DNA from: Rhizaria sp. SCN 62-66
Taxonomy: Eukaryota
Length of the DNA: 56,481 nucleotides
Reading direction: 5' to 3'
Assembly: GCA_001724265.1 (NCBI GenBank)
Contig: MEDY01000175.1
Coordinates: 1 to 56,481, forward strand
Shown: positions 5,604-56,481 of the stretch, piece after piece
How the letters are laid out: the number at the start of each line of letters is the position of its first letter
Numbering within the stretch: the first letter of the stretch is position 1
Made by a program: the position numbers and the translations under genes
Notes under the pieces: model-generated
Told to the model about the DNA's origin: nothing
The model's input: the letters and a program-made list of their open reading frames with translations, nothing else
Databases searched by the model: none

Positions 5604-5725
5604 ATTGCACATATTTAGCACGAAACTACCTTCATTAATACACTAGCACTTCAACCGTTATCGTAATAACAACGCAAGCTATCTTCAAAGCATTCTGTCC
5701 GTTGGCTCATCTGCATTCAAGGCTC

Positions 5726-7763: not shown

Positions 7764-8188
7764 TTTGTTCTATGCTGATCATCTTTTAATATTCTCTCTA
7801 TCGTTGTGAAAGTAAGGAATCTGATATGATGAACGTGACGCGTGAGGGAGCAATGAGAGGCCCTGCTCGGCTTGAACATTGCCCTCAATTGTTCATGTTA
7901 GTCCCCCCTGTTTATACTCATTCAAGTCATGTTTCTCACCGTTTCCAAGTTGTTTGCATCCGTTAATTGCACTAGTCTGCTATACCGCAAAGATAATCAT
8001 GCTTTATCCTCACTTTCTCCATCATCGGCACCATCACACAGTGTCCAGACCCGCTTAACTTTGCCCCACTTGAACATACTCTCACTTGCCATTCTTTCTT
8101 ATGCGCGTGTTATTCTTCTTGCGTATGCCACGTTCATCTTTGTGTCCCTTAAGGGTTGTCCCTGTTTCCCGCAGCAACCCCGCCCAGA

Positions 8189-10164
8189 ATGTCCGACTCC
8201 GCTCTGGACCTCGCCGCCTCATCCCTCGGTAGTCTGGGCCCCCTCGCCCAGTCCCTCCCTTCGGTGCTGCCCGCTTCCCTTTCCGCGCTGCCCTCCGCGC
8301 TCACTGAGGCCGTGCACACGTTGCGCCCCGTTGCCATGCGCGCCTGCGTTCGCCTCGCCCACGCCATTTCGCCCCCCGAGATCACCTCCTCCGCGGCAGC
8401 GGCCTAGTGGGCGGCTCTCACAGGCCACGCCGACGCCAGCGACGCCGCGACACCCTTCGTGACGGCGACGCACTTCTGCGACAGCCTCTCGCGCTTTTCC
8501 GCCTTTGACAGCGTCGACTCGCCGCTGGCCTTCCCGGCCCCGGTGCAGACTCTGCGCGCGCTCGTCACTCTGGCCGCCTTCGCGGTCACGGTCGCGGTGG
8601 CGGTGTATGTGCTCGTGCACGTGCTCTTCCTCCGCAAGCGCAAGGCCGGTACGTATCTGCTCGATGTGGCAACGTACAACGACTTCCGCCCCGAGTGGAC
8701 CGTTAGCGCGGAGGAGTGGGCGTCGCGCGCGCAGAGCTGGTTCAACATGGATCCTGAGGACATCCAGTTCAGCCGCACCATCCTCGAGCGCAGCGGCATC
8801 GGAAACCGCACTGTACGTTACTTATTTAGAAGATACTAGACTCATATTGCTTTGAACTACTCTACTTAGCGGCGTTGGCTAATTTCTATTTGATTGGAGC
8901 TTAAAGGAGCCCCATTTGACTCGTATCTCACACGTTCACTTTGCTTTCTTCCTTCCACACGCCACACAGCACTTTCCCCCTGGCATCGCCATGTTCCCTC
9001 CCGACCTGTCGATTGCAAGCGCGCGCTACGAGGCCGAGCTCGTGATGTTCAACTGCGTTGACCAGCTGCTCAAGCGCAACAACGTGCACCCCAAGGATGT
9101 CGACATCCTCGTCGTCAACTGCTCTCTGTTCAATCCCACGCCCTCACTTGCGGCTATGATCATCAACAACTACGGCATGCGCGAGGACATCATGTGTTAC
9201 AACCTCTCCGGCATGGGCTGCTCGGCCTCGCCCATTGCGGTTGATCTGGCTTCACAGATGCTCCAGGTCTCCAAGAAGCGCGATCCCGTGGCGATCGTTG
9301 TGTCGATGGAGAACATCACGCAGAACATCTACCTCGGTCGCGAGCGCGCCATGATGGTCGCCAATTCGCTCTTCCGCATGGGCGGCGCCGCTGTCATGCT
9401 GACCAAGCACGCGCACGCCGCCAAGGGTCGCCCCGCCGCGGGCTGGAAGCTCAACGAGCTCGTGCGCGTCCACATGGCGGCCAACACCAACGCGTACACG
9501 TGCGTCTTTCAGGTAAGTGTTCTCTCTTCTTTAAGTTAAATTCAAACGTTATAGTCATGATTACATAAGCATGTGTCTATATTCGGAATCTACATTTTAA
9601 TTTCAATAGTATTTGTGAATTTTGATTTTCATAGTGATCTCACAGCCACACATCTTATTGTTTCACTTCTCTCGCATGCAGGACGTCGACAAGGAGACCA
9701 AACCTGGCGTCCGTCTCGACAAGTCGCTCATGAAGGTTGCCGCGCAGGCGCTAACCCGCAACATGACCATCCTGGGCCCACGCATCCTGCCCTGGCACGA
9801 GAAGGCGCGCTACGGAGTGCTCACAGCGCTGCGCCTGTTCAAGGTCTGGCGCAACCCTGCGCTCGCGGCCTCGCTGCCGCCTGTCGTGCCGAACTTCAAG
9901 TCGGCGGTGCAGCATATCTGCATCCACGCGGGCGGCCGCGCCGTCATTGACGCCATCCAGAAGGCGTTGTCGCTCTCAGACGCGGATGTGAAACCCTCGC
10001 GCGACGTGCTTTATAAGTATGGCAACACCAGCTCCAGCTCCATCTGGTACGAGTTCGCAAACATTCTCGAGAACCGCAAGCCCCAGGTCGGAGACAAGGT
10101 CTGGCAGATTGCGTTTGGCAGCGGCTTTAAGTGCAACTCTGCCGTGTGGGAGCGCATTGCTTAA
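8189..10164 (+). CDS. KCS: FAE1/KCS-type 3-ketoacyl-CoA synthase (very-long-chain fatty acid elongation), ~549 aa if TAG 8405 is read as sense; exons 8189-8812, 8970-9512, 9682-10164
   Basis: N-terminal TM helix followed by YLLD; ILERSGIG; DILVVNCSLFNPTPSL; catalytic NLSGMGCSAS; LFRMGGAA; HICIHAGGRAVID; GNTSSSSIWYE; QIAFGSGFKCNSAVW. Two phase-0 GT-AG introns (8813-8969, 9513-9681). Stop TAA. Confidence 0.95.
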
Positions 10165-35300: not shown

Positions 35301-37251
35301 CGCGGCGGCGGACGCGGCGGCGGCGGCGGCAGCGAGCGCGTTCGCGTTCGTAGCACCGGCAGTTGCAGCGGCGGCCGACGGAGTGACCACGTCGATGGTA
35401 TTGATGTCAGCGGCGTCGTCGTCAGCCATCAGCGCAGTCGCAGCGAGAGCCTCGGTCGGCTCTATAGTGGAGGCAGCGTTTGCACTGGCGGCAGCGGACT
35501 TCTTGGAGACAGCCTTGAGCACCGTCACGCCAGTGTCAGCGGCGGCAGCGCCGGCGGCAATGGGCACGAACGCCGCTGCAGGACCAGCGCCACCCTTGCT
35601 CCCCGCGCTGCTGTTTGCGTTTGTGGCGGAATTTGCGTTGGCGGTGGCCTGCCAGGTCATCGCGAGTACCGCGCCGCGGGCCACGTTCTTCCCCACGGTG
35701 AACACGGCCACTGTGCGATCGGCGGACTGCGTGGCCACAAACTGGCCGAGCGGGTCCACGGCCACGCCTTGCGCCTGCGTGCCGTGCGGGTCCGCCAGCT
35801 GCGCCGCGCGCAGGGACTGAGGCAACAGCGGCGCCGCCACGGACGGCGCAGCGATTGGCAGGGGGATCGCGTCGTCGGTCAGCACAGAGATGGGGTACAC
35901 GGGCGTGTAATCACACGCGACGCCGGGGATAGTCACGCCGCCGCCCATAGCAGCGGCTGCGCCGTCGCTGTCGGACATCGCGGACGTGGAAGACGCTGGA
36001 GAAGATGATGATGAGGCGGCCTCAGCGGCTGCGGCAGCGGCGGCGGCGCACGGCACGGGAACGCCCTGCGCGCGCGCCCAGGCTTCGTAGGGGACGAGCG
36101 CGGGCAGCGTGAGCGGGCGCGTCATCTGCCACACGATCACCTTGCCGTCCTGGGAGACGGAGTACAGCGCAGAGCCGCAGGGGGACCACTGGAGGTCGTA
36201 GACACACGCGAAGTGGTTGCTCAGCGTGGCCACCCGGGTCCACGATTCAACGTCGTAGGACGACGAGGATGGGGAGACAAAAGACGCGGCCATGGCGGTC
36301 GCGGCGGCGTCATCGTCGTCCGCAGCGGCAGCGGCAGCGGCAGCGGCAGCGGCGTCAGAGTCAGCATCAGCGTCAGTGTCAGCCGCCTTGGCCTCGGTCG
36401 CGGTAGAGTCACTCTCAGCCGCCGCAGCAGCAACAGGCGTCACCACGGCAACTGTGTTCGCATCAGCAGAGGGCTGCACGCCGTTGGGGTTGCTATTGAA
36501 ACCTGTGGAGGCGACGGGCGCGGCGGCGGAGGCGGCCGAGGCCAGCAGCACCGAGCGCGCCTCGGTCTTGAGCAAGGACAGCAGTGCCGCCGCGGACGAA
36601 GGCAGCGAGCGCGCGGCGGCCGCGGACAGCGCGGACGCGGCGCTGGGTGACGACGCGGTGGGGGCGGCGGCCAGGGCGGATGCGGGCGTGGCGGCAGAGA
36701 GAGAGGAAGGGAAAGTCGGGGCAGTGGGGGCCGAAGCGACGCCGCGGGAGGGGCCGTTGTAGCGCCAGATACACACTTGGTTATCTGCGAATCAGAATGA
36801 CATAAACGTAAATGGTGAGGAATACTGGTTTTGTTAGCTGGGGTATTTCATTTAAGAGCTGGTATGTTTGTTTTGAGAAGTCAGAGAGGAGGAACGTACT
36901 GTCTGCGCCCGAAGCGAGGAACATCCCGTTGGGGCTGAAGCGGATGGTGTTGACGGCACAGTCTTGGTTCTCAAGCTCAGAGAGGAACTCAAGGAGCAAG
37001 TGGTCATCGTTAACATGACGGCGGAGCTGCCAGATCTGTGAAAGAGAGCGATGTTATGTGGGGGTCGGTTGGAGTGTGAGGTGGAGCTTGCTGGGTATGC
37101 AACGATGAGAGGAGTCAGAGAGAAAGGGCGCGGAACGTACACGAATAGAGCCGTCTTGACTTGCGGTGGCAAGGCGACCGGACGGGTGAAAGTCGACACC
37201 AAAGATGGCAACCTGGTTGTGCCAGGAAACCATGGGAACCTCTACCTTCAT
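32400..37251 (-). CDS. CHAF1B: Chromatin assembly factor 1 subunit B (p60/Cac2), WD40, ~1543 aa; exons 37251-37141, 37035-36900, 36784-32400
   Basis: MKVEVPMVSWH, VDFHPSGRLATASQD, AVNTIRFSPNGMFLASGAD, VYDLQWSP, QGVAVDPLGQFVATQSADR, TFFRRLAFSPDG and LSDLAWTSDGLTLVISSQDGYCSVVSF. Two GTACGT...CAG introns restore the frame. Stop TGA. Confidence 0.9.
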
Positions 37252-37709: not shown

Positions 37710-38327
37710 TCACCTACGATCATCCCAGGACACAGTCTTAATATACGCACTCAAATATATCATATATTCGAGGTTGCATCGTGGTAGTCTGATAACCCTC
37801 CTGTATCGACTCCTTCGTAGCACCAACAACTGAGCAGACGTCACTGGACAGCGCTTAACCGAATGTCTTGGAGCGCGATAGTCGTTAGTCAAGACGTAAT
37901 AGCAACCGGCAGTAGTCAACATGTCCCCGCTGAACATAATACTTCTACTGCTTCTTCGCGAAAGTGCCGATTTGCAGACTGAATACTCGCTTTGCCACGC
38001 AAGAGCACTGACTATGCTGGCGATTGCAGGGCGGAGTTCTTTAACAGGGAGATCCACGCCATAATCCGCTGTCAAAATAAAGTACGACATAATAATACGG
38101 AGCAATATCGCGTAGGCACTTCCAGAATGCGTCATTTCTCCTAATATCTGCTTTGTCACGACAGCTCCGGTCGAGTGAGCAGTGGCGACCAGCCCAGTCT
38201 GCCAGCAGAACCCAGTAGACGGGGTCATACAGCACCATTCATCGACTCTCAAATACTACAAAATATGCCATTCATCTACATATACCCCCAACCCGGCCAA
38301 TATCGCATCGTGGTGCATTAGTTCCAT
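37710..38327 (-). CDS. Hypothetical protein (~205 aa) if TAG 38256-38258 is read as sense
   Basis: ATG at 38327 (MELMHHDAIL...VDEWHIL*YLRVDEW...) runs in frame into ORF 38252-37710 and ends in TGA. Lower GC than neighbouring genes; no recognised homology. Confidence 0.35.
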
Positions 38328-38583: not shown

Positions 38584-39032
38584 ATGGCCAAGCACCACCC
38601 TGACCAAATCATGTGCCGCAAGCAGCCGGGCGTGGCTGTTGGCCGCCTGTGCTTGAGCTGCGACGGCAAGTGCTGCCTGTGCGACAGCTTCGTGAAGCCC
38701 CACACGCAGGTCCGCGTCTGCGACACCTGCGACTACGGGGCCATGCAGGGCCGCTGCATCATCTGCGGCAATAAGGGCTACTCCGACGCCTACTACTGCA
38801 AGGAGTGCTGTCTCCTTGAGAAGGACCGCGACGGTACGTGTTTATCTTTCAAACTCTCCATAAATACCTTGCTTCTCGCTTCCTGTCCAGCATTCCTTAC
38901 CTCACCATATTCTCTCTCGCTCTTGCGTTCCTTTTCGTCCTTTTAGGCTGCCCCAAGATCATCAACCTCGGCACAGCCAAGTCAGACAACTTCTACGAAC
39001 GCAAACGTGCCGCGGGAACAAAGAAAACATGA
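38584..39032 (+). CDS. PHF5A: PHD finger-like domain protein 5A (Rds3/SF3b14b), U2 snRNP SF3b subunit, 111 aa; exons 38584-38833 and 38947-39032
   Basis: MAKHHPD...CRKQPG...DAYYCKEC...[14 protein letters not shown]...FYERK. Phase-1 intron GTACGT...TTTAG. Stop TGA. Confidence 0.97.
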
Positions 39033-39744: not shown

Positions 39745-42700
39745 TTAGCCGCGACGGTCAAACTTGCGCACCTTGGCTCCCTTGAAGAAACCGCCCTTGC
39801 CGCCAGAGGTCCGCTCAGCCTTCTTGCCGCCGAAGCCGCCAGAGCCTGAGCCAGCGCCAGCGCCGCTGCGGTAGTTGTCATTCTTGCCGCGCGAGTCCTG
39901 CGATGCGCGCTTGAAGTCGATGCGCCCGTCCTTGCCGCCGTAGCTCTCCTTGAGGTCCTTGAAGCCGGTGAAGCCCTTGATATGGGCGGCCGGCCCCACG
40001 GCGCGCTGCGCGTTGTCCATGATCTTGACCATGCCATGGTCGCGGTTGTAGACGTTCTTGCGCGCGACGTTGACGGCGTTGGCCATCATCTGGAACGCGC
40101 CAGACGACGCGTGCGCCGTCTCGCCCGTCATGTGCATGCGGCCGACGTCGCGCGCCGAGTCGCGGTGCGTGGCCGACAGGTCGAACTGCGAGGCCGCCGC
40201 GTCCGTCGCCGTCGACGAGCGCGGGCGCTTGATCACGGCCTCGCCGGCCAAGGGAATGCGGCGCACGCCGAGGGCGTCACGGTCGTCGTCGCCGTCGTCG
40301 TCGCTGTCGTCGGCGACGGTCGCGCGGAGGCTCGGAGTCGCAGCAGCAGCAGCAGCAGCGCTAACAGCAGGGGAGTAAGGTTTGCTGCCACTGGAGAGCT
40401 TGGTGGCGATGTCTTCGTGACGGTGGTCGTCAGCGTCGTCGTCACCGCCCCAGCTGTTCTTGTTCAGCGAACTCGTGCCCTTGGCGAGCTTGGGTACCGC
40501 GCGCTTCACACTGCCCTGGCGAGCGCCGGCGGCCTCCATGGCCTCCTTTACAGCACGCTGCGCCACGACGCCGCCGACCTTGGCCGCGGCGGTGACCGTG
40601 GCGGCCGTGTACACGGCGGCGCCGCTGCGGCGACCGAGGTCGACATCACTGTCGCTGTTGTCGGCCGCGGCCGCGGCGTGCAGGTCGGCCGCGCGCACGC
40701 GGTTGCGCTTCTGCTTCTGGTGCTCCTGTTTCTGCTTCAGCTGCTGCTGCTTGGCCTCCGCAGCGGCAGCAGCAGCGGTAGTGTCGGCGTCCTTGGTCCC
40801 GTCGCGGTTGTTTCCGGCGCGGCCGTCGCTCTCCTGCTTGTTCTTGCGCTCGATGCGCTTCGCCATCTCGTCCTTGACGGCCCAGATGGCGTCCTTGCCT
40901 GTGAACTCGGTGCGCACCTTCTTCAGCCGGCCCGCGTCGAGCGCGGAGTCGTACTCGTCGCGCACGTAGCCCAGCTTCCCGCTCGCCGCGACCTCGGCGG
41001 CGGCGTCTGCGGTGCCCGCGGAGCCCGACCGGTCGGCGCCGTCCCAGCCCTCGAGCTTGGGCGCCGTGGCGAAGATGGCGGCCGCGCCCTTGGCGAGGTA
41101 GCGTTGCTGGCCTGCGCGCATGGCGTCGGTCACGCCGTCGAGCTTCTCCTTGGTCGCGCGGCGGCGCGCCTTGGCCTTGAGTCGCAGCGCCTCCTCCGGA
41201 GTCACGAACTTGCTGTTGCGGGCTGCGGCCGCGGTCGCGTTGGCCGCGGCAGCGTCCTCGTCCTCGTCATCGTCGTCGCTTTCGGTCTCACTGTCAGCCT
41301 TCTTGCCCTTGTTCTGAGCCTTGTTCTTAGACTTGGCGTCCGAGTCGGAGTCGGAGTCGCGTTGCGTGCTCTGTACGCGGCCGTCCTTAGCCTTCTTGCC
41401 GCGCGTGCTCACCTTATCCTCGGCGTCGCTGTTGCCGTGGCCGTCGTCGTCGCTGTCGCTGGTGTCTGACCGCACCGCCGCCTTGCGCGCAGCCGCCTTG
41501 CTGTCGTAGTCGTCGCCACCATCGTCGTCGCTGCTGTCGGCGGCGGCGTTGCTGTCTTCGCTCGAGTCCGACATTGCGGCCAGCGCGGCGGCGCGGGCGG
41601 CCTTGGCGGCAGCCTTCTTGCCCAGCGCCGCGGGCATGGCTACGATACGGCCGACGCCGCTGCTGCGCTCCGCGGCGGCCAGGAACGCCGCCGCAACCGA
41701 GGCGGACTTGGCCTTATCGCTGAGGGGCTTGCGCTTCTTCTTGCTGCTGTCGTTGTCAGACTCGGACTCGGACTCGGACTCGGACTCGGCGGCGGCATTG
41801 GCGTTGGTGTCCGTGTCGGAGTCGCTGATGGCGAGCAGTGCGGCGTACTCAGCGGGCACTTCGGACTCAGCCTTCTGAGGGACAGTGCTGACCTTGGCGG
41901 CGGCAGCGACAGGAGCGGAGATCTTAGTGGGCGCAATGAGCTTCTTGCCCTTGGAGTCGGGAATAGCGGCGGATGTCTTGAAGACGGCGGCATTGGTGAT
42001 AAGCTTCTGAGACTTCTTCCCCGCGGCAGCGTCATCGCTGTCACTCGAGTCGCTCATGTCATGCTCACCCTCACCGTCGTCCTCATCGCTGTCGAGCTCA
42101 GCCTCATCGGACTCAGTTTCGGTGTCAATCTCACCGTCCTCGTCCTCGTCCTCGATGTCATCCTCAGCATCGGCCTCGTCCTCATCCTCGTCGGCAATAT
42201 CGCCCTCGAGCTCGCCGTCCTCGTCAGCCTCGTCATCGCCTTCAGCAATGTCGCCCTCGCCCTCGTCGCCTTCATCGCCGTCGAGGTCGTCGCCCTCGTC
42301 ATCGCCCTCAAGCGTCGCTTCATCGCCCTCAGCAAAGTCCGTGCCGTCGTCGTCGTCCTCGTCCTCGTCAGAGCGCGCGTCGCTTTCGAAGCCAGTGACG
42401 TCGTCTGCGTCGGGGTCGTAGTCGACGCCGAAGTTGGACTTCATGAACGCAGCAATGCGCGCGTTGGTATCGGACTCATCATAGTCCTCCTCCTCTTGCT
42501 CTTCCTCATCCTCGAAGTCATCCTCGTCGTCATCGTCAGAGTCAGAGTCAGCGTCCAAATCAGCGTCAGCGTCCTCATCAGCGTCAGCGTCCTCATCAGC
42601 GTCATTATCGTCGTCGTCACTGTCGCTGCCACTGTCGGCCATGGCCGTGAGCGGCGCGGCGCTTGCGACGGCAAAGTCAATGAGACCCTTCTTGGCGGCG

Positions 42701-45700
42701 GCGGCCTTGCTGTCCTTCTTGGCGGTAATCACGGCCGCGGCCGCGGTTGCAGCCTCCGAGGCGGCCGTCTTGCTCACCTTCTTGCTATTGGCCGCGGCCG
42801 CCGCAAAGACCGACGTGTCGCAGGCGTCGGCGTCGTCGTCCGTGCTGTCGTCAGCCATCGTAACGCCGCCCTTGCCCGCCGCGGCGGTCGCGAAGTCGAC
42901 GGCACTGCGCTTGACGCGTTTGCCCAGCAGCGCCGAGTCTCCAGAGTCGGACTCAGGCTCGTTGTCGTCGTCGTCGCTGGCGCTTTTGCGCTCATCAGCC
43001 GCCGCAGTGCTGTTAGCAGCGGCGGCGGCGTCGTCGTCGTCGCTGCCGTCGCTCACGCATCCGTACACTTCCTCGTCGTCGCCGAGCCCCATGACGCCCG
43101 CGCTGCGGCTCGCGGCGGCCGCGCGCTGCCGAGGCATGCGAAGTCCCAGCGCCGCGGCGGCCGCCTTGCGGTCCACGCGCACGCGCTCCACCACGCCACG
43201 CCGCAAGGTGTCAGGCACCGCGGGCGCCAGCTTCTCGTAGACAAGGACATACGCGCGCTCCTGCAGGACCTCGCGCAGAGGGATTGGACGCGAAGACTCG
43301 TCGTCCTTGAGGTACCAGTTTTCCCAGTCGCCGCAGCCTTCCTCCTCTTCATCGTTAGCCTCATCGTCGTCGCTGTCGACAAGAGTGCGCTTGCCGTGCT
43401 TGCCAAAGTGCTGCTGCTGCTGTTGCTTCGCGAGCTTCTTGGCGCTCAGGGGAGTCTTGGCGCCGCGCCCCTTGACGATTGCGTAATAGTGCCCGTTGCC
43501 CATCGATCCGTGGTGGACAACCAGGCCGCACAGCCGGTACTTGTAGCTCTCCAGGCCGCCCAGGGGTACGCCCACGGTCACTGCGCTGACTGGCTGGTGC
43601 TTGTCGGCAGTGGACTGGTTGGCAGCGTTCATGATGCTGCTTGCAGTGGTCGCAGTCAAAGAGTTCGTGGTCGTCGTCGTGATCGTCGTCGAGAGCACGG
43701 CGAGGCGCGCGTGGTTGGCCACCGTCGTCACGTCGGCCGCGGCGGCGACCGGGAGGTGGTAGGAACCAGCGCAGCCGATGCCGCCTGCTGCAGGCGGCAG
43801 CGGCCGGCCGCCGGGGCCGCGCGCGAAGGACTTGACCGTCGTCATCGTCGTCGTCGTCGTCGTAGTCGTGGTGTTCGAGCTGTGAAGAGTTGCGCCGACG
43901 CCGAAGAGGGTCGAGGGCAGACTGGTCACATAGTCGTCGGCAGCGACAGCGGCGGCGGCGGCGTTCACCGTCGCGGTCGCGGACTCAGAAGAGCTGCTGG
44001 TGACCGTGGTGCTGACGATAGGCGCGAGGGGCAGGGACACAAGGCCGCTGCCGAAGCCGACGCTGCGCGTGGCGTGCAGCGAGTTCAGTCCGGGCACCTT
44101 GCTACTGCCACTCCCCGCCGCAGCAGCAGCAGCAGCAGTACTGTTGGTGTACGACAAGGCGAGCACGGGGTCGCTGACGCCACCCGACTGCGCGCCGGGG
44201 GCCATCGCGGCGGCGGCGGCGGCGGAGGCGGTGGCGGCGACGGGCGCGATGGTGGCCACAGAGGGCAGCGCGGCGGCGACGAGCTGCGCGGGCGTGTCCA
44301 GCGGCTCGAGCCCGTATGGCAGCTGCGGCGCGTCGAGCATGCGCACGATGACCGCGCCTCTGTCGCCCGCCACGCTGTTGCTGTTGCTGCTGACGCTGTT
44401 GCCGTGGACGTCCGTGACGATCACTGGCGTGGACGCGGTGGCCATCGGGTGCGGCGCGCTGGCGTACACCGCGAGCGGGACAGCGCTCAGAGACACGGGC
44501 TTGGCGGGCTTGTTGCCGTAGCCCTGCGCAGTCGCGGCCGCGGCGGCTACGGCCTCGGCCAGGACGGCCGTGATGGCGCTTGCGTGGGTGGGCACCGTCA
44601 GGTCGACGAGCGAGGCCGCGGTCTCCGCGCGCCGGGCCGAGGCTACCACGGCGGCCGCGGCGACGGCGGAGGGCGCGTCGGCCGTCAGGCTCAGGCTCAC
44701 GTTGTTGCTGTTGCTGTCGCCGGCGGCGCCGCCACTGGAGGTGGAGAGGTAGTTAAGCGTGCACTGGGGGGTCTTGGAGCCGCTGGCGCTGGTCGCAGCC
44801 GCCGCGGCCGCCGCAGCGCCGGCAACTAGCCCCGTTGCCGCGGCCTTGGCGTAGGCGGCGACGCCGGCGTTGGCCTTGCGGACCGATGAGGAGACGAAGG
44901 GGCGCAGGTCGAGCTCGACGGGGAAGGTCACGCGGTGACCCAGCTTGGTCCCGTTCATCAGCCGCTTCTTGGAGCCGGAGCCGAAGGAGCGGCCGAGCAT
45001 CTCCACGGCCTCGAAGCCGGCCGAGAAGCGCTTGAGGTGGATCGTGAGCACGTTGGGCATCTTATGCACCGTGAGCCGCTTGCGCGCGGTGACCTTTGTG
45101 GCGCAGCGCGCGCAGCGGTACGCGTTCTTGCCCTGCAGCACCTCGGGCTTCGTGAACGCCGCCAGCGCGTCCTCCACGGAGCCGATATTGGCAACCTGTA
45201 CCGAGAGGTCGAGGAAGCGCTCGTAGCTGTTGCTCTCGTAGTTGCACACGGAGCAGCGGATCTGCGAGCGCAGGACGCCGCCCATCAGCGCGTACACGGG
45301 CCCAGCGAGCTGGGCTGACATGGGCAGCGCTGCGGCCACCGCGGCGGAGTCCCAGCGGCCGCTCGACTGGGCGGGGGCCTTGTGCAGGTAGGCCGGCAGG
45401 TTTGACTGCAGCCAGTGCATGTTGAGCTTATCGAGCAGGGACCGCATGGCCTCATGGGCGTCCTCTTGGTCGCCTGTGATGTGTGAGGGGAAAGAAGAGC
45501 GAGCAAAAACAAAGAAGAAAGAGGAAGGTGAGAAAAACAAAATTAAAATGCACCATACAATGCCGTTTTTAAATGTAAATTGGACTGGTTTTTGTCTTTA
45601 ATGAATATTAAAATTTGCGTACCGAATGCCTCCATGGAGGGAATGATGGCCTTGAGGTGGCGCACGACCCACTTAGGCGCAATTTCCCGCGGCGGCACGT

Positions 45701-48700
45701 TGGCCAGTGCGTTACTATCCTTGTTGGCACCCGCGACCGTGACGCGTCCGCGCATGTGGAAGCTGACTGCGAGCCGCTGGAGCGTGCAGACGGCGCAGAA
45801 GGGCGTCTTGCCACTGGCGGCGAGCGCGGCGGCGGCAGCAGCGCTGTGGCCCTGGCAGCGCACGCAGCGGTGCGCGTGCCGGTCGCCGCCCAGCTCCGCG
45901 ACAGCCGCGGAGAGCGGGTCTCCGAAGGCCACGGCGGCCAGCGCGGCCGCAGCGTCAGCGTCGGACACAGTCATCTCGCCACGGGTGCTCGCTGTCACAC
46001 TACTTGAGTGACTCGAGTTGGCGAGGATGAAGGGCCGCGCCGTGAGCGCCGCAGCGGGGGCGGCCGGCGCGTACTGACCCAGGTAGGCCGCCACCGCCGC
46101 CTCGGCCGCGGAGGCGCCGTCGGCGGGCGCCAACGGCACGGGCGTCGGCGCGGGCGCGGCGCCGTTGGCCGCGGCCGTGGGGGCCTTGGAGCCGGGCACG
46201 GTGGTCAGCGGGGCTGAGCCGCCGCTGCTGGCGGCCAGGAGCGAGCGGGCGAGCGCGGCGCAGTCGTCGGCCACGGCCACGCGGCGCAGCGCCAGCACGG
46301 CCACTGGCGACGCCGCTGACCGGGCGGCCGCGGTGCCGGCCGCATTGGCGGTGGCGTCGTCGACCATAGAAGAGGGGCGGGGGGCCCACAGCGGGTGCAG
46401 CGGGTGCGTGGGGGCGAGCCGCGACACGAGTCCGTCGCCGCGGTTGAGCGCCGCGGCCACCGAGGGGTCCTTATGGTGGGGGAAGAAGGCCATACCGGCG
46501 TTGTGAGCGGTGACCGTGAGCGTGGGCCGGCCGCCGCCCGGCGTCGCAACGGGCGCGACAGGGTGGGCCGGGTGGTTCGGCGGCCGCGGCAGCGCGTGTG
46601 GCGGTGGTACCTGCACCCTGGCCTCGGCCACAGACCGCTCCCACACGCGGGTCGCGGCGATGGCGCGGAGGCGAGTCAGCGCGTTACTCACGACGATGTG
46701 CTGGCCGGACCGCCAGAGTGTCAGCAGGACCGAAAAAAGGGCCTGCGGGGACTCAGTCGCAGCGCTACTGTTCACAAGAGGCAGCGTGTTGGTGACGGGC
46801 GGCACTGAGGGGCCCTTGCGCGAAGGGGCGTTCTCAGCGGCACTGAGCAAAGACTCAAGCACTTGCACCGAGTGCGCCAGAGTCGCATCCTCGTTCTCAT
46901 CATCGCCATCGTCGCTGTCCATTGCCTTGTGACTGCCAGCGCTAGCACTCGTACTCGCGCTCGCAGCAAGCGGTAGGTGGAGTGACTGCCCGCGGCGGGC
47001 GAGGCGGCGGCCAAACAGCTGTGCCAACGACTCGATGCGACTCGCACCGGCAGAGAGAGCACCGCCGGTGACAGCAGCCGGGGCACTTACACTGCCACCC
47101 TTAGCCGACGCAGAGGAGGCACTTAGACTGGCGGGATCGACGCCCGCGAGCTTGAGCGTCTCCTCTGAGGCGGTGAGACAGAGCCATTGCGCCAGCAGGG
47201 GGATGTGCATCATGACTTGCAGCGCCGAGTTGAGGAAGCACGTGTTGCCCAGGTTGGCCAGCCCGGGGGTTGGCTTCAAGGCAGCGGCTGTCACCCCGCC
47301 AGCTCGACCGGACGCGGCCGCCGCCACCGCCGTCTTGACCGCCTTGGCGGAGTCGGCTGCGATCTCGGCACTCTTGGAGGCCAGCACGGCGGCGGCCGCG
47401 GACTGCTTCTTGCTCTTCTTCTTAGCACCGCTATTTCCGTCAATACCGTCTTGCTCCTGCTCCAACTGCTGCTGCTGCTGTTGCTGCTGGAGTTCTTTGA
47501 GCTTCTTGCGCTCGCCAGAGAGTTCGGCCTCGATCTCGGCCTTGACCGCTGCGCCATAGATGGCCTCCTGCTCCGGCCAGTGCAGCAGCAGCGCGGGCAG
47601 GCGGTCGGGCACGCAGGTCGCGTGTAAGGGCGACGGGTAAGGGTAGTCGTCGCCGTAGATAAGCCGCACCGCGCTGCGCGCCACACGCAGCACCAGCAGT
47701 TCCAGCGCGTCGACGGGCACCGCACCCGCCAGCACCGACGGCTGCTGCTGCTGCGTCGCGTCAGCCTCGGCCTCGCCTGCAGTGATGGACTCGGGGTCGG
47801 CCGGTGCAGTCTTGTTGCTCAGCTTGCCCTTCTTCGCGCTGCTAGCGCTGCTGTTAGAGGCAGCGAGCACCGCGTTGGCGAGCGCCTGGGACAAACCGGC
47901 AACGGTGCGGATGTTCGCGGCATTTGCAGCGGCAGCGTTGGCATTCGTGCCATTGGTGTTGTTGTTGGAGGCAAGTGTTTGAATCGCTGTGAGGACCCGT
48001 GCCAGAGCGCGCTTGCGGGCGGGGTCTAAGGGCCTCGCCTTGGCCCCCTTAGACGCCTCACCGCCATTGTCACGGCGCGACTGCGTGTTGAGCCCGTATG
48101 CAAGCGCAGACAGCTCAGCCAACACGGCCATAGCGTCGACTTTAACGCCCCCGCCCGCGGCGCCTGCGGTGCCGTTGGACAGCAGAGAGTCGCCGGCGCC
48201 GGCTGCGCGCAGTAGCGCACCGAAGGAGGACGACGCGACGGCGGCCACGCTGCCGGCGGCGGCCGCGGCGGCCGAGGCGGACCAGCGCGGGTCGTAGCCG
48301 TAGACCTTGGCCAACGCGAGGTTATCCAGCGGGTCGCTGTACTTGTTTGTGTTAAGGGTTACCAAATTGAAGGAGCCGTCCTCGGGCCGCGCGGGTTTCA
48401 GCGACCGAGGATCGCGGGCAGGCGTAAAGCCGACGCGGCGGGTCAGCACGCCCTGCGCCTCGCCCGCCAGGTGCGCGACGAGCGACGCCGCAGTGACGCC
48501 GCCCCTGCCGCCGTTCAGAGGGTTGGAGTTTGAGCTCCCGTCTCCCGCGGAAGCGCCTGAGTCTGACTTGGCCTCTGAGCCGCGGCGGCTTGACTTTGCA
48601 TAGTGCGGGGTCAGCGTCACACCGTCGCGCGGGTCGTGCTCCTGTGCGTCGCCGTCGTCGTCGCCGTCTGCCATGGCGCGGGGGCCGGAGAGCGGATCCG

Positions 48701-49013
48701 TGTCGTCGTCGAATGACGCGCGGGAGGCGCGGATGCGGGCCTCCACGTCAGCGTACGCGTCGGCCGCGGCGCCCGTGGCGGCGGAGGCCGCAACGGAGGC
48801 CGATGAGTTGCTGCGGGCGGCAAAAACGGCCGAGATGACGTTCGTGGACGCGGCGGCGGCAGCCTTGTCCTTCTTCTTGGACGAGACATGGGCCGATGCT
48901 GAGGCAGCGCCCTGCTTGTTAGGGGTTTGTGCGGGGTGCACAGTGGCAGAGCCGCCAACAAAGCCCTTGTTGTGCTTCTTCGTCACACCGATGTGATGCG
49001 CGTTGAAGGACAT
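39745..49013 (-). CDS. USP36: USP36/USP42-like (nucleolar) ubiquitin-specific protease, ~3039 aa; exons 49013-45623 and 45473-39745
   Basis: GLANLGNTCFLNSALQ; FCAVCTLQ; the intron 45622-45474 splice creates FGDQEDAHE; GGVLRSQIRCSVC; FLDLS; YRCARC; LTIHLKRF; YRLCGLVVHHGSMGNGHYY; AYVLVYEK. Acidic tract and C-terminal DEYDSALDAGRLKKV resemble the USP36-family tail. Stop TAA. Confidence 0.88.
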
Positions 49014-49428
49014 GTGAGTATGCGAGTGTCTCCCGAGTGGGAAAGAGAGAAAGCGAAGGACAAGAGACTGTGATCGCAAGAGGAGAGAAGAGGTGGATTT
49101 GGTAAGCGGAATGTCGAGGAGTTCATCAAGCAGTGAAGATTTTAATGGAGAATCGAAGTATTTGCGCCATGATGGTAGCGGTAATGAATGTGGTATAACT
49201 ATTTACGGAAGTGTAGTGCTGTTACAGCAGTGTTTCGCGGCACGCAGTCCGTGGTTTGGCGGTCTCCTGCCCAGCCGACCAGAACCAAGCCTCGCTTTGG
49301 CGCCTTGCAGCCTCGATGTCATCAACTTCAGGCAAGGTTATCGATATTAAAACAACGTCAAATTGCCGAGAGACTTTGCATCCTGGTTAGCTCTTGAGCT
49401 TCGTATGTGATATTTCAATTACATCTCT

Positions 49429-50644
49429 ATGTCTCTTCGTTTCGCTCCTCGAGTCGCAAGTGAGCTCCGCTCGCTTGCACGGAATCCTCCTTCTGGTACG
49501 TCTCTTTTCCCGCTCCCCTGCAGACTTGATAGGAGATGCTCATAGAAATAATATCCAGCTCACAACGTAGGCATGGTGCGCAACTTTATTATATCGTATA
49601 GGAATCACTGTTTCACACACTGGCGAGGACCAGGGCATGATGCTCCTGACCGCAACCCTCGCCGGCCCTCCTGACACCCCCTACGAAGGTGGTGTCTTCA
49701 CTCTGTCCGTGCACCTCCCGCATGACTACCCGCTGCGCCCGCCGCAGGTCCGCTTTATTACGCCTGTTTACCACCCGAACATTGACGAGAGCGGCCGCAT
49801 CTGCCTCGACACGCTGCGCATGGCGCCCTCGACCTCATCGGCCTCCACCTCGGCCACTGGGGGGCTCCACTCCGCGGCTACGACGGTGGGCGCAGGCTCC
49901 CTCTCGGCGCCCGCTGCGGCCGCGGGGTCGGGCTTCTGGACGCCGCTGCTGACGATCGAGGCGCTGTTGCTGACGCTGCAGGTCATGTTAGCGCACGCCA
50001 ATCCTGACGACAGTTTGGTCCGCGACATCGCTTCTGAATACGTCACTGACCGGCGGTTGTTCAATGAGAAGGCGCGCTCATGGGTTCGCATGTACGCGTC
50101 ACCCACCGATGCCGACGGCTACGACGCTGATGGGCCTGCTGCGATTGAGAACGTAAGTCGCACTGCCTCGTCGCGGAGCAAGACCGTACCGGTGACGCCA
50201 CCAAAGCGAGCCAATGCCAACGCTGTTGTGCGGACGATGAACGCGACCGCGCAAGGCGGCGGCGCTTTGCTGTATACGCCAGGTAAGCGCTCTCGAACTA
50301 GTGACAGCAACAGTATGCGCTCTCGCAGCAGCAGCTGCAGCAGCAGCAGCAGTAACAACAACAGCGAAGACAGGAATGTGACGAGTGAGGCCGCCGGCTC
50401 GGACCCTGCGTCTGGTCCTGATGCCAGTGTAAAGGCCCGCGACTGTGATCATTCGTTTGCGGCTGCTTTGTCGCGCGCAATCACAACGCGTTGGAATGTT
50501 GAGCGCTCAGTTCCTACAGTAACATCAGCTGTAGCAGCAGCAGCAACAGCCTCAGCGACAGCAACATCACCATCTGTCGGAGAGGGAACTGACCCTCCGG
50601 CTGCAGCGCTTAACGGCAGCGAATTTTGGAGCTTTCTGACATAA
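49429..50644 (+). CDS. UBE2T: Ubiquitin-conjugating enzyme E2 T-like, ~369 aa; exons 49429-49495 and 49602-50644
   Basis: [59 protein letters not shown] (catalytic Cys); [14 protein letters not shown]...ARSW. Phase-1 GTACGT...TATAG intron. Stop TAA. Confidence 0.85.
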
Positions 50645-50866: not shown

Positions 50867-53800
50867 TTAGTCAGTCGGCGATGAAGCAGGATTCGTGGCG
50901 AAATAGGTCGAATAGAAACCATTAAAGTCGAGCCGTGTCAGCAGGTCACTCCAGTCGCCCACAGCTGCATTGTTGCCGCCGCCGCTGCTAGCGCTGCCCG
51001 TCGCCGTGGCCGCAGTGGCCGCCTCGGTCTCTGCCGCTAGCAGGGCAACGAAGGCGCGCAGTCGGTCGTCGAAGGACGTGGAGAACTTGTTGATCATAAG
51101 CGCAAAGTGCGGGTGCGAGACCACGCCCGACGCGCGCGCCGTACGCTCGGCCACCTTGAGCGCGCGCGCGCGGCCGCAAAGAACACCCGAAGCGGTCCCC
51201 GCGCCGCCCGCGGTTGCGCCGCCAGAGCCGGCGCCGTCGCCTTGCTGCAGCTGCGAGAGTACCGCGTCTGCGGGCGAGGCGTCGACCGAGGCGGCGAGGC
51301 GGCGCGCGTTGTCGGCAAAGAGCAGGCAGTAGGTGAGCACCTTGACCAGCACGGCGAGCAGCCGCGGGTGCGTGAGCATGCAGGCGTGCAGCGCGCCGTC
51401 GAGGAAGCCCGAGTGCAGCCGAACCACCTCGTCGACGGTCGAGGCGATGGCGACGCGCGCCGCCATCGCCTGCCATGCCGGCTCCAGCGCGGTGTGCGCA
51501 AGGTAAGTCGACAGCGAGGTGACCAGGTGCAGCATGCGGTGCCGCAGAGTGTTGGCGGCGGCGAGTGCACGCTCCAGAGAGGCGGACTTGAATGTCTGCA
51601 GCGACGCGAATGCGGCGCCGAGCCTGCGCTGCACGTGCCGCACGAACACTAAGTGCCGGAACAACAGCTGATACTTAGTCAGCGAGCGGCGTGAGAACAC
51701 GAGGTTGAGCGGCCAGTCGACGCGCATAGTGAGAGCAAGCACGTCCAGGCCGCGCAGCGCGTTGCCCGCAGAGCCTGCGGCGGCGGCTTGCCGCTGCTGC
51801 TGCTGCTGCTGCTGTTGTCCAGTCGCCGCAGAGCTATTGACAGCGGCGCCCGCGGCGGCGGCGGCGATCGCGCCGGTGGGCTGCAGGTAGCACACGATCT
51901 GGTCCCTGTAGGGGTCCTTGCCGGCGCCAGTTGTGCGAACCGCGTCTTCCCACAGGGCGTCGAGCTTCGCGGCTGACACCGCCGCGGCGGGCAGCGCGAG
52001 TTCGGCCCCCGCAAGGTCGAGGAAGCGCGAGGCCAGGTCGCCGTAGCCGAGTAGGAAGAAGCCGCGCGCCGAGGCCAGCCGGCCCGCCAAGTCCAGGCCC
52101 CGGGGCGCGGGGGACCGGCACAAAGACAGTGCGGCTGTCGCGGCGGCAGCGTGCGCGGCGCCGATCGCCGCGGCGAGGATGTGCGGCTGCTCCAGTACGA
52201 GGCGCGGGTTCCGGGCCAGTGTGCTGAGCGCAATTTGGTGTAAGCTGCCACTCTGGCCGTGCGAGGTGCTCACATCGGCGTCCAAGTAAGGCACCAACGC
52301 GGTCGCGCCGGAGCCTGCGCTATTAGTCAGGCCGCCGTCGTTGATGGACGAATGCAGCCGCAGGACGCCCCAGTGCCGGCCCGCTAAAAGAAGCATCTCT
52401 GCGTGCGGCCGCAGGAACAACGGCACCTCAGACAGCGGCCCCGCGTCGTCCTCGCCGCCGTCCTCCTCCGCAGCGGCCGCGGCCAGCGCGGCGCCCGCGG
52501 CGGCGGTGTCGGCGGCGGCGGGCGCGCGGTGCGCGTACCGCTGGTGCCAGTATGCCTCGCCCAGGTCCTGAGCGACGCGGTCGCCACCCCAGTCTGCCGT
52601 GGACACGATGTGGAACTCGTCCCACGCGTCGCCCTCCAAGTCCGCGTGGCAAGCCCACGCCGCAGTCAGCGCCAAGTACGGCGCGGCGGCGGCGGCCCAC
52701 AGCGCGGCCCAGTCGTCGCGCGCCGCCGCGTCGCCCGCGCGGAGCAGCGCGCGGTGGACGAGGGTCAGCAGGTGCGCGCCCCGGCCGCGGCGGCCGCGGG
52801 AGAGCGCCGCCGTGAGCAGCCAGCGCACCCGGGCCCAGCGCGCGGCCGCGGGGCGCGTCGCGTGCCACAACTGCAGCAGCGAGAGGCCGCGCGGGGCCTG
52901 TAACGCAGCTTCCAGCCGGGCGATGAGCAGCGCATGGCCGCGGTGCCAACGCGCGATCGCCGAGCAGAGCGACGTCCACACGGAACCGGCGCCGGCGGGA
53001 CGTCCCGCGGCGGCCGCAGTCGTCACTGCGGCGGCGAAGGCGGCGTCGCGGCACAGCGGCAACACGCGCGACACCGTGTCGGCGAACGCGGGGGGGAGCA
53101 CGGCGGCCGCAGCGGGCGCGAGGTCTAGGCGGGTGGCCGCGGCGGCGGCGGTCAAGGAGTCCCAGCCAAGCGCGGCTGCCACGGGCAGCCCGGTGTCGGT
53201 GATCATGTTGCTCGCGCCCGCAGCGGCGGCGGAGGCACTCGCAGTGGCGGAGGCTGCCGAGTCCGCGGGGACGGCGACGATGAAGCGCGAAGGCAGCCCC
53301 TCGAGCGCGGAGAGCAGGTCGTCGCACAACACGGCCTCCTGCTGCTGCGGGGGCAGCGCGCCCAGCACTGACGCCGCGGCGGGCGCGGCCGGGGACGCGA
53401 GCGCGGGCAGGCAGCCGCGCGCCGTGAGGGCGGACACGGCGCCGGGACCCAGCAGCGAGGCCGCAAGCGGCGGCGGCAGCGGGCGCGCGGCGTCGGCGGC
53501 CGTCACCGGCGCCGGGGACGGGCGCGCGGTCAACACGCAGGCGCGCGCGCGGGAGCCTCCGGCGGGCGTCGTGGCCGCCGTGGCCGCCGGCGCCAGCACC
53601 CACTGCGCGCAGTCTGTGGCCAGGGCGGCGGGGGCGATGGCGGCGATGGTGGCCACGGGGGCGGGGCGGCCGGTGAGGGCGGAGATGGGGCCCGCGGTGA
53701 CGGTGAGCCACAGGCCAGAGGCGGTGTGCTGCAGCCACACAGGGGCGCCCGCGGAGATAGAGTGGCCGTAGGGTGCAGAGTGGTGGCCATGAGAGGCCGA

Positions 53801-54896
53801 GTGGTGACCGTGAGCAACGACGCCGCCAGGAGTACTCGCAGTGAGGTGTTGCAGAGGGTCGACGACGGTCCAAGCAGCGGATTTAATGTCAGCCGCGTCA
53901 CTACTCTCAACACTCGTGTTCGGGTTAACATTGCCGGAAAGCGACGAAATGACTGTGAGGGCATTGTTCGAGTTATTGCTGTTGGAGACGGCCAGCAGCG
54001 CAGGGGTGCCAAGGGCGGCGATGAACACGGTGGCTCCGTGGCGCAGCACAGACGCAGTCGCCGCACTGCCACTCACGCCGGCCACAAGCTGCTGCTGCTG
54101 TTGCTGTTGCTGCTGCTGCTGATGCGACTGCGACTGGGTCGGGTTGGGGTGAGGCGCAGGGACGAATGCGAAACCACAGAAGGCGCTCCGAGTGCGGCTT
54201 GACTTCGGTGCGCCACTGACGCCGTACAGCTGTTGCTGCTGCTGCCGGTACAGCGCCATCGCAGCGCCGTTGTCACGGTTGCTGCTGGCGCTGCTGCTGT
54301 CCTGAGCTTGCGGGAGCGTGATGGCGGCGCCGGCGCGGGGACGCTCGCAGTCGCTGCCCACGGTCGCCAGTCCCGCGCTCACGGTCACATTTGCGCCCGC
54401 CCCGTCCGCTGCGGCGCCCGCACTGGCGTTGCCGAGGTTGGCGCTGCCGCACTCGGTGAAGACGGAGAGGAAGAGCTCGGTCGCCGGGGCGGCGGCAGCG
54501 GCGGCCGCGGCGGCGGTGTTGGCCGTGGCCGTGGCCGCGGAGACAGCGAAGCCGAGGCGTTCCGTTGCACTCAACGCCGCGGCGGCGGCGGAGGACGCGG
54601 CGGCCGGCACGGGCGGCGCGGTGAAGGGCAGCGCTGAAAGCACGGCGTCGAAGAGACCGGCACCGCTGTCTGCGGCTGCGGCGTTAGTATGGGAGAAGGC
54701 GGGGGCGGCGGGCAGGTGCAGTGGCGGCGGGTGCGGCTGCAGGAACAGGGGCGCGCCCGTCAGAGTCGAGGCGAGGCCCCAGGGAGAGACGACGGGCGCG
54801 GGCTGAGGCTGCTGCTGCTGCTGACGGTGATACTGCGCGGAAGAAGGCGTATTCGCATGAGGATAAGACTGGGTGTGTCCATGGGGCAGCAAGTTA

Positions 54897-54948
<52 letters not shown>

Positions 54949-55702
54949 ATGAGCGATAGAGGTTGTGCGCACTGGCAGAGCTGGCAGTCGGCAACGCAGC
55001 CCCGCTGGCAGTGACAGCAGTCGCGAGTGGGGCAGCCACATGTACAGCGTTGACCTGACTAGTGTTCGTCGTGGTCATTGCAGCCGAGGCAGCGGCGTCG
55101 TTGGTTTTGATGTACGTGGGATGGTAGTTGGCGTAGTCGCTGGCCGTTGCCGTCGGCAGCGGCGCAGCAGCGGCAGGACCAGCGGACGACAACGACGCGG
55201 ACGACGACGAGGACGACGTAGATGCAATGTAGGCGCGATGGTTCACAGAAGTAGCAGGAGCAGGAGCAGGGGCAGGGGCAGGGGCAGGAGCTGTGCTTGT
55301 GACAGGAACACGAGAGGGCGCAACACCACTAGCTAGCGCGGGCGGTGCGGCGTAGTGACGCGGCAGTGCAGGTGCAGCCGCGCTTGAGCTCACAGGAGCA
55401 CCTGCAGCAGGAACAGAAGCTACTGAAGCGGGGGCAGGAGCAGGGACGTAGGTAGCCTCAGAGTTCTGCGTTACAGAGTGTTGAACAGGTGCAAAAGACG
55501 CGGGCGCAGCACCAATGTTGGCCGACTGACCGGTAGCGCGCGGAGGGGAAGCCACGGCGGGGCCTGCGGCCGCGTTCTTGGCGGCGAGTGAGGCGTTGAT
55601 GTTGCTCAGCGTGGCGCGGTATGCGGCGACGGCCGAGGAGAACGACGCTGTGCTCGGGGCGGGGGCGCCGGGCGCGGGGTTAGAGGCCCCGGGGTCAGAC
55701 AT
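50867..55702 (-). CDS. TUBGCP2: Gamma-tubulin complex component 2 (Spc97/GCP2), ~1611 aa if TAG 54947 is read as sense
   Basis: EAVLCDDLLSALEG; DAWDEFHI; YWHQRY; VPLFL...LLAGRHWGVLR; FFLLGYGD; GLDVLALTMRVDWPLNLVFSRRSLTKYQLLFRHL. ORFs 55702-54947 and 54892-50867 are in the same frame, separated only by one TAG. Stop TAA. Confidence 0.88.
54899..54946 (-). repeat. (CAG)16 coding microsatellite (poly-Gln)
   Basis: 48 nt of perfect CTG repeats on the + strand, immediately preceded on the coding strand by TAG. Confidence 0.95.
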
Positions 55703-56312
55703 CTGTGCAAAGACTTAACAGACTGAAACAAAGTTACTGTGATGACTGGGAACGCTGGGAAGTCATGTGAAGAGAACAGAGAAGGCGGGAGCACGAGGTG
55801 AGAACGAGAAGATAACTTGTAGGCAATATACATCAGGATACCTGCTACAATTTAAATATAACAAATGATGCATCGATTATATTCACAGAAAGTCCTCCGA
55901 AATTTAGAATGACGAGTATGCATGATGATTTATTGATTCCTAGCTTGCCTCTCTTGTGCGACTTCGAACGGGCCACAACCCCCACCCTCGCGCCACCACA
56001 GCGTAGCAAACAAATCGGACGATACGACTAAAGGAAGATATTCACGGCATGAACAAAGTCAAATGAACGCAAAACTGAAGTATATCATACTTGAAGATGA
56101 ATAATAAATGTGTGTATGTATCTGTGTTGACCGAAGCCGCACAAACAGTGATTCCCTAGCGTGATCAACGTTGTGTTACACCGTCCGTCAGTCACACATG
56201 AATAAATATCTCTCTTTTACTTTATATAAAAAATACAGTACAAGTTACATATTAGAGTCGTAACCTCAAGCTATCAAAACAACACATATGCTCTATGCGG
56301 CGACTGAGTGGC

Positions 56313-56481
56313 TTAGAGCTTGGCGTTGAGGCGCTGCGGGTTGGGCTTGGGGAGCTTGGTCTTGTGCTCGAGGAGCATGTCATTGTCCGGGGGCAGGCCG
56401 GCGCAGGCGGAGAGGATGTTGGTGACCATGCGCTGCTGCTTGGCGAGCGCGTTGACGACGGGCGTGCCGGGCATGACCATG
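56313..56481 (-). CDS. INO1: myo-inositol-1-phosphate synthase, C-terminal end (runs off the window)
   Basis: My translation is [40 protein letters not shown]...AKL-TAA, matching the conserved MIPS C-terminus pattern [12 protein letters not shown]...ENI.RAC.GL.P.N.M.LE.K. It is not in the ORF track (<60 aa). Confidence 0.92.

Follow-up and report, generated by a model that had tools for sequence, protein, structure and literature searches.

A TAG codon heading a (CAG)16 tract in a GCP2 reading frame is probably translated in an uncultured GC-rich eukaryote

Introduction

Nuclear genetic codes in which UAG alone has become a sense codon, with UAA and UGA kept as terminators, are known from a handful of lineages, namely the rhizarian exLh, Iotanema, and a few ciliates (PMC5304391, PMC11687900). 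We have analysed a 56,481-nt stretch of DNA (GenBank contig MEDY01000175.1, positions 1 to 56,481 of the forward strand, from assembly GCA_001724265.1, deposited as Rhizaria sp. SCN 62-66; hereafter designated the window), in which a TAG codon followed by 16 CAG codons stands within the reading frame of a gene for GCP2. A second TAG lies in frame in a gene for a FAE1-type 3-ketoacyl-CoA synthase (KCS). We estimate at about 0.72 the probability that the GCP2 TAG is a translated codon in a 1611-codon gene starting at ATG 55702, and that the organism reads UAG as an amino acid and terminates translation only at UAA and UGA.

In the fornicate Iotanema spirale, UAG is described as encoding Gln, with UAA and UGA serving as stops (Panek et al. 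2017, PMC5304391). The window resembles this system in that UAG alone would be sense, with UAA as the main terminator and UGA as the second, which is the pattern of NCBI table 15. UAG is a minority codon in I. spirale as well, accounting for ~8% of the Gln codons (PMC5304391), as compared with ~0.5% of the Gln-type codons of the window if UAG encodes Gln; moreover, Iotanema is an AT-richer anaerobic flagellate, whereas the eukaryote of the window has a GC content at third codon positions (GC3) near 0.85. In the rhizarian exLh (Sainouroidea), UAG encodes Leu, and the stops counted in the same report are UAA (56) and UGA (15), never UAG (PMC5304391). The stop pattern of the window is the same (8 TAA, 4 TGA, and 0 TAG), but UAG is frequent in exLh (384 in 71 genes; PMC5304391), and the closest homologue of the KCS has Glu, not Leu, at the position of the TAG. 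A further difference from the sainouroids is the GC content of 37.7% given for Rosculus vilicus, the one sequenced sainouroid genome (PMC10770858), against ~50–75% in the window.

In phyllopharyngean ciliates, UAG is reported to encode Leu or Gln, with UAA as the preferred stop (McGowan et al. 2024, PMC11687900). Their reassignment likewise concerns UAG only and was found by mining environmental and metagenomic assemblies; UAG use is, however, described as widespread there, with suppressor tRNAs identified (PMC11687900), and nothing in the window suggests a ciliate. Programmed read-through of UAG under the standard code is alike in that the protein continues past a UAG that is rare in frame, but differs in that the essential conserved domains of the window follow the UAG and no gene ends in UAG. 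The window is a probable further case of the known UAG-only pattern, from which it differs in its very high GC content and in the near-absence of UAG from genes. Within a limited literature search, no eukaryote from wastewater was found to have been described with a code of this kind. If the code is as proposed, a very GC-rich genome with UAG nearly unused would show an early or weakly decoded stage, and would be a useful test of codon-capture and ambiguous-intermediate models. Gene callers that apply the standard or a bacterial code split the genes of this organism at TAG.

Results

An in-frame TAG in the GCP2 gene

The first-pass annotation, made from the letters of the window, had described a TAG heading a (CAG)16 tract within the GCP2 frame and joining an ATG-initiated open reading frame (ORF) of 251 codons to a GCP2 ORF of 1341 codons. 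Both the sequence and the coordinates proved right: the minus strand reads AAC CTC TAT CGC TCA TAG (CAG)16 TAT AAC TTG CTG, and the two ORFs share one frame, which becomes a single frame of 1611 codons when the TAG is taken as a residue. The features of the locus are as follows.

54947..54949, minus strand: in-frame TAG, codon 252 of the GCP2 frame
54899..54946, minus strand: pure (CAG)16 tract (poly-Gln) immediately 3' of the TAG, 48 bases, uninterrupted
55702..54947, minus strand: ATG-initiated ORF of 251 residues, terminating with the TAG at 54949-54947
54950..55702, minus strand: N-terminal 251 codons before the TAG, low-complexity and Ala/Pro/Ser-rich
54892..50867, minus strand: ORF of 1341 residues, starting with TTG by bacterial rules, in the frame of the 251-codon ORF
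54260..54898, minus strand: open, coding-looking codons from the CAG tract to ATG 54259, with GC3 of 0.77–0.88 and a codon score of +0.46 in frame
50867..55702, minus strand: proposed single GCP2 gene of 1611 codons including the TAG, with ATG 55702 and stop TAA at 50869-50867

Two Pfam domains were recognised in the 1611-residue protein, GCP_N (PF17681; residues 858-1117, E 4.8e-18, 66.2 bits with a cut-off of 29.4) and GCP_C (PF04130; residues 1205-1597, E 4.9e-59, 200.7 bits with a cut-off of 25.8), whereas no Pfam family was found in residues 1 to ~850, which are of low complexity and rich in Ala, Pro, Ser, and Gln. The closest relative, a metagenome protein (P0003), is 59% identical, and the designation of the protein as a GCP2-like gamma-tubulin complex component follows the JGI name of that relative together with the GCP domains.

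Codon usage was evaluated with a log-odds score, for which the remaining ORFs of the window served as the training set and their off-frames as the background. In frame, the stretch of 251 codons ahead of the TAG gives +0.29 bits per codon, in contrast to -0.77 and -0.53 when it is read in either of the two alternative frames of the sense strand. The score after the TAG is +0.46, and that of the gene body +0.36.

If the TAG were a real stop, it would be either a recent CAG>TAG nonsense allele truncating a dispensable N-terminus or the end of a separate or upstream 251-codon ORF, and GCP2 would be translated from ATG 54259, the first in-frame ATG downstream of the TAG, or from a non-AUG codon. 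A protein starting at Met482 would indeed keep all of the GCP domains, which begin only at residue 858, and all of the homology with P0003, which begins at 685; it would lose an N-terminus with no Pfam family, and nonsense codons originate most commonly through C>T within a run of CAG. Such a protein would, however, leave unexplained the 229 codons from the TAG to ATG 54259, which have GC3 of 0.77–0.88 and a positive codon score but no in-frame ATG, the three ATGs that precede 54259 (54882, 54858, and 54390) all being out of frame. Also, no spacer separates the two ORFs, true intergenic DNA here having ~40–50% GC. The start at ~54259, which the first-pass annotation had offered as an alternative on the basis of a correctly located ATG, therefore fares poorly, and with the observations on the KCS gene and on the recurrence of the allele described below, we regard a real stop as unlikely.

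A second in-frame TAG in a conserved KCS gene

The other in-frame TAG occurs near the opposite end of the window.

8405..8407, plus strand: in-frame TAG, codon 73 of the FAE1-type KCS
8189..10164, plus strand: KCS gene with exons 8189-8812, 8970-9512, and 9682-10164, introns 8813-8969 and 9513-9681 (GT-AG), and stop TAA

An exhaustive HMMER search with exon 1 of the KCS gene as the query gave a KCS of 525 residues (P0006) that is encoded by one unbroken ORF on another metagenome contig. Over residues 40-208 of the window KCS, 118 of the 169 positions (70%) are identical without a single gap, and the aligned region spans the TAG: the window has SPPEITSSAAAA, then TAG, then WAALTGHADASD, where P0006 has SPPEITTTESAA, then E, then WAALTGNADAGD. 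The 72 residues before the TAG match P0006 unaided (20 of 33 identical, E 3e-14), and over 522 positions the spliced KCS model has 78.9% identity with P0006, with the same C-terminal residue and a TAA exactly at the end of P0006. The TAG follows ATG 8189 and precedes the conserved transmembrane and catalytic portion, and the codon score is nearly the same before (+0.565) and after it (+0.577). As judged from this alignment, the KCS TAG is inside a conserved, otherwise intact coding sequence; since the alignment is gapless, no intron can remove it. This evidence is decisive, and it lies outside the GCP2 finding.

That the KCS gene has the same kind of TAG as GCP2 argues against a real stop at the latter. 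No Met or ATG is found from the KCS TAG to the membrane helix and the conserved YLLD..DFRPEW block, and a protein starting at the next in-frame Met would begin beyond the membrane helix and the YLLD block.

Gene ends, starts, and the rarity of TAG

Among the gene ends of the window, a small sample of 12 in which those of KCS, Pet127, and GCP2 were checked against the end or length of a homologue, TAA accounts for 8, TGA for 4, and TAG for none. TAA ends 8 of these 12 genes despite a GC3 of ~0.85.

Around both TAGs, all frames but the shared one score negative, as does each of the six frames of the intergenic controls. A best-segment scan, in which TAG was neutral and TAA and TGA were hard stops, gave the segments 50891-55702 and 8189-8806, which begin exactly at ATG 55702 and ATG 8189, respectively. 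Both of these starts, and not 54259, have the context ATG-TCY (TCC or TCT; Met-Ser) that is seen in 6 of the 11 listed start codons, 55702 being ATG-TCT. All seven large ORFs besides GCP2 keep their coordinates when TAG is taken as sense. A six-frame flank test was also applied to stops with 40 open codons on each side (95 TAG, 53 TAA, and 150 TGA); the KCS TAG came first of the 95 TAGs, and two coding-like flanks were found for no TAA (of 53) and no TGA (of 150).

Within genes, TAG is found in frame at only 2 of 14,213 codons (~1 in 7,000). This extreme rarity is as expected if UAG is poorly decoded, and could be explained under the standard code by leaky or programmed read-through at both sites by a near-cognate tRNA (e.g., tRNA-Gln with anticodon CUG); both TAGs also come early in their genes. 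Read-through would, however, be needed for any functional product of 2 of ~12 genes, and it does not account for the absence of TAG from the 12 gene ends. The motifs known to favour read-through, CAR-YYA and CARNBA, do not fit the downstream contexts, which are CAG CAG in GCP2 and TGG GCG in KCS. Read-through under the standard code is thus decidedly unlikely.

Several other TAG-containing ORFs (5707-6573, 8149-8799, 37710-38327, and 1-723) were considered and rejected, as they show no family and extend across introns or DNA that is not coding. For the ORF of a UBE2T-like E2 (E2T; 49316-49636), no UBC-like sequence appeared when upstream TAG was translated as Gln; the N-terminus is in a separate exon behind a GTACGT..TAG intron.

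Transcript contigs

All four sequencing runs compared with the window are represented by Logan contigs, in which uncovered stretches are uninformative; many of the contig pieces derive from GC-rich repeats of other organisms, and the many joints at 51864-54498 are of this type. Poly(A)-RNA contigs of one run (X5) match 54152-54686, 54968-55242, and 55663-55867 without differences. The first of these crosses ATG 54259 and extends upstream, and the last crosses ATG 55702. No X5 depth is seen on the intergenic stretch 55930-56309, where run X3, possibly DNA, and run X4, whose kind is not on record, continue; this pattern, although weak as evidence, fits a transcript start near 55870, upstream of the first ATG.

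The transcripts bear also on A-to-I RNA editing, by which UAG would be converted to UGG (Trp). Stop-loss editing of this type occurs in some filamentous fungi, UAG being of the editable kind, and the sole point in its favour here is that both in-frame stops are UAG. Against it, the RNA-covered parts show no A>G difference (the TAG itself being masked), the organism is not a recognisable ascomycete, and Trp fits neither the Glu nor the Leu of the KCS homologues. We consider editing extremely improbable.

Introns of the window and the GTACAT candidate

By homology or by conserved protein sequence, eight introns were defined; they are given here together with one rejected candidate.

6333-6149, minus strand: intron
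8813-8969, plus strand: intron
9513-9681, plus strand: intron
36899-36785, minus strand: intron
37140-37036, minus strand: intron
38834-38946, plus strand: intron
49496-49601, plus strand: intron
~45622-45474, minus strand: intron
55040..55045, minus strand: GTACAT, rejected as the donor of a 99-nt phase-0 intron at 55045-54947

The donors are GTACGT (6), GTAAGT (1), and GTACGC (1), with G at +5 in all eight. The seven introns that are fully delimited are 105–185 nt long with a GC content of 0.31–0.55, and their acceptors are CAG (5) and TAG (2, in PHF5A and E2T). Introns are AT-richer than exons, and most of the large genes are intronless.

The GTACAT at 55045-55040, also correctly located by the first-pass annotation, had been proposed there as a weak donor of an intron ending at the GCP2 TAG, in which case the mRNA would read AAC GCT joined to CAG CAG. 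TAG is the acceptor in two of the seven delimited introns, the CTCTATCGCTCATAG before the TAG is pyrimidine-rich like the acceptor of E2T, and the length of 99 nt is near the local range of 105–185. The other properties of the candidate do not suit an intron: its donor has A at +5 where all eight local donors have G, and its GC content is 0.636 as against 0.31–0.55. Within the large ORFs (39,282 sense bases), the hexamer GTACAT itself is present at four unspliced sites, and the 100 codons upstream of the TAG that span the candidate (55249-54950) score +0.41 per codon, as coding in frame. None of the 16 phase-0 GT positions upstream of the GCP2 TAG is GTACGT or GTAAGT. Moreover, a poly(A)-RNA contig (X5 record 21; 54968-55242) runs through the donor with 0 differences and keeps it together with 78 nt of the candidate, although a spliced form is compatible with this contig and the acceptor side is masked as a repeat. 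An intron at GCP2 also cannot explain the KCS TAG, which is aligned gapless to its homologue. Collectively, with A at +5, a GC content of 0.64, and retention in a poly(A)-RNA contig, the proposed intron fares poorly, and we take it to be very unlikely.

Recurrence of the TAG alleles in other data

A JGI metagenome contig of 4306 bp (L001) is 100% identical over 4278 bp to positions 56481-52204 of the window and carries the same TAG with identical 16 CAG units, and a fault in a single assembly therefore does not explain the TAG. The exact 1341-residue ORF that begins just after the GCP2 TAG (P0002) is on record from five contigs, and a search over lengths of 886–2820 residues found no 1611-residue form. 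The occurrence of the allele on five contigs, with no form of read-through length on record, argues against a real stop, as does the absence of TAG from the 12 gene ends. A scan of metagenomes for DNA upstream of the GCP2 gene of P0003 returned L001 only, which is the window sequence itself.

The ORF ending at the KCS TAG is likewise found on three contigs, one source each being JGI, Logan, and ENA. In public protein sets, two ORFs stand for GCP2 and two for KCS, the KCS pieces being P0008 and P0007/P0258, apparently split by gene callers that stop at TAG and at introns. The ORF after the KCS TAG exists as two variants of 126 residues (P0007 and P0258), which belong to one 90% cluster and come from 2 and 7 contigs, respectively; this suggests strains of this organism in several data sets. 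Three runs of bioreactor or wastewater material, which belong to two studies, contain nearly all of the DNA of the window, and other runs contain part of it.

Observations weighing against a sense UAG

Several observations weigh against a translated UAG. In total there are two in-frame TAGs, and homology anchors that of KCS only: P0003, the sole relative of GCP2, aligns only from residue 685 on and gives no anchor at the GCP2 TAG, which is in a low-complexity N-terminus that is not conserved and is supported by codon statistics only. For GCP2 alone, a recent nonsense allele could account for the TAG. The middle third of the upstream ORF (55579-55250) has a codon score of ~0 and GC3 of 0.40–0.48. 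The gene ends are few (12), and UAA can also be the preferred stop of relatives that use the standard code, as described for Guttulinopsis (PMC5304391). In the flank test, the GCP2 TAG is 15th of 95, with 0.25 upstream and 0.01 downstream, owing to the predominance of CAG in the 40 codons that follow. The second and third places are taken by antisense shadows of Ala-rich genes, which makes the test noisy.

The frequency of the codon is a further point. TTG occurs 92 times against 537 for CTG, but TAG occurs 2 times against 358 for CAG; TAG is 10–30 times rarer than mutation alone predicts for a free synonymous codon, and dozens would be expected if it were freely used for Gln. The window contains no tRNA genes. 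Neither strand nor ends can be read from the RNA contigs, which cover the region in patches and come from a library that may contain DNA; the CAG repeat and its surroundings are masked, which leaves 54789-54955, and hence the TAG itself, without a contig.

Meaning of UAG and stage of reassignment

If UAG is sense, it would be decoded by a tRNA with the anticodon CUA, and the release factor would no longer recognise UAG. Neither a tRNA(CUA) gene nor a release-factor gene is within the window, and two scans of prokaryote genome bins for eukaryotic contigs of this organism found none.

The CAG context had been taken in the first-pass annotation as the best clue that UAG encodes Gln. What stands of this claim is that a single coding frame continues through the TAG, which is most probably translated, in view of the KCS TAG and of the 12 gene ends without TAG; the context itself does not show Gln. 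Its neighbours suggest that the GCP2 TAG may have arisen from CAG by C>T, but a TAG of any meaning originates most often by just this change in a CAG run, which would be tolerated in a disordered poly-Gln head whatever TAG encodes, so that the context is no proof of Gln. One homology column, that of KCS, is usable for the meaning of UAG, the GCP2 site being without an aligned homologue. The residue in this column is Glu in P0006, the nearest homologue of all, and, in a MAFFT alignment, Leu in P0009, the nearest named KCS; in the column after it, the alignment blocks pair W of the window with F of P0009. Gln and Glu are conservative partners, and Leu has the precedent of exLh. Given that UAG is sense, we estimate the weights of the possible meanings as 0.4 for Gln, 0.25 for Leu, 0.2 for Glu, and 0.15 for others; Gln is the single most likely meaning, yet it is unproven.

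The great rarity of UAG in this organism points either to poor decoding or to a recent capture. Tentatively, and with distinctly less confidence than in translation of the TAG, a lineage of uncultured GC-rich eukaryotes of wastewater reactors may be placed early in UAG reassignment, UAG having been lost as a terminator and having come back as a very rare sense codon. It would then be a codon-capture intermediate independent of the known UAG-sense lineages.

Affinity of the organism

The eukaryote is uncultured, GC-rich, and intron-poor, and is known only from bioreactor and wastewater metagenomes. Its coding regions have ~65–75% GC with AT-richer spacers, and GC3 is 0.79–0.90 in the large ORFs. 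The nearest relatives of four proteins are metagenome ORFs (P0003, P0006, P0019, and P0138) with 59–79% identity. The best named matches of Pet127 are from Mucoromycota (~40%), and those of E2T are mixed, with a Lygus-labelled E2 at 35%; neither search gave a placement, and no rRNA was found in the window.

The nearest named KCS (P0009; UniRef A0A0A9YKC4, 57.7% identity) is labelled Lygus hesperus. To our knowledge, insects and trypanosomatids have no FAE1-type KCS. Panek et al. (2017, PMC5304391) report two protists only as contaminants of the Lygus transcriptome assembly, namely Blastocrithidia and exLh, the sainouroid designated "rhizarian exLh". On these grounds P0009 is probably from exLh. 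The rhizarian affinity through KCS is a lead and no more, the kinship being that of one gene. P0009 ends with ...KIRYIFR where all homologues continue, as expected of a standard-code translation of a transcript with an in-frame UAG, as in exLh. Sainouroids such as Rosculus are described as common in wastewater plants (PMC8827150).

Other genes and features of the window

The other genes recognised encode a FYVE/dual-specificity phosphatase, a VASt-domain protein, Pet127, and the UBE2T-like E2, and the remaining features are listed below.

6573-5726, minus strand: small gene
56316-56481: 3' end of a further gene
45543-49013 and 39745-45447, minus strand: two adjacent large ORFs of 1156 and 1900 residues, N- and C-terminal parts of one UCH/USP domain
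36785-37251, minus strand: 5' part of a CAF1B/HIR1-type WD40 gene, with ATG 37251 (MKVEVPMVSWHN), not 36293, two short 5' exons, and two 5' introns
38584-39032, plus strand: small, highly conserved PHF5A/Rds3-type gene, recognised by eye and not by Pfam, containing a single intron (GTACGT..TAG) and ending with TGA

Two USP/UCH proteases are present, one of them intron-split. The ORFs of 1156 and 1900 residues apparently belong to a single gene that is interrupted by an intron with the donor GTACGC, and the TAA at 45545-45543 would accordingly be intronic rather than a gene end. In the WD40 gene, coding-like sequence extends in frame over 156 codons upstream of 36293. The PHF5A/Rds3-type gene occupies a seemingly empty gap of 3.4 kb. 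A strong negative AT skew (-0.34 and -0.22) is seen at 40001-44000, over the C-terminal half of the 1900-residue UCH ORF, and long antisense ORFs of 495 and 922 residues within the same region score as coding-like shadows.

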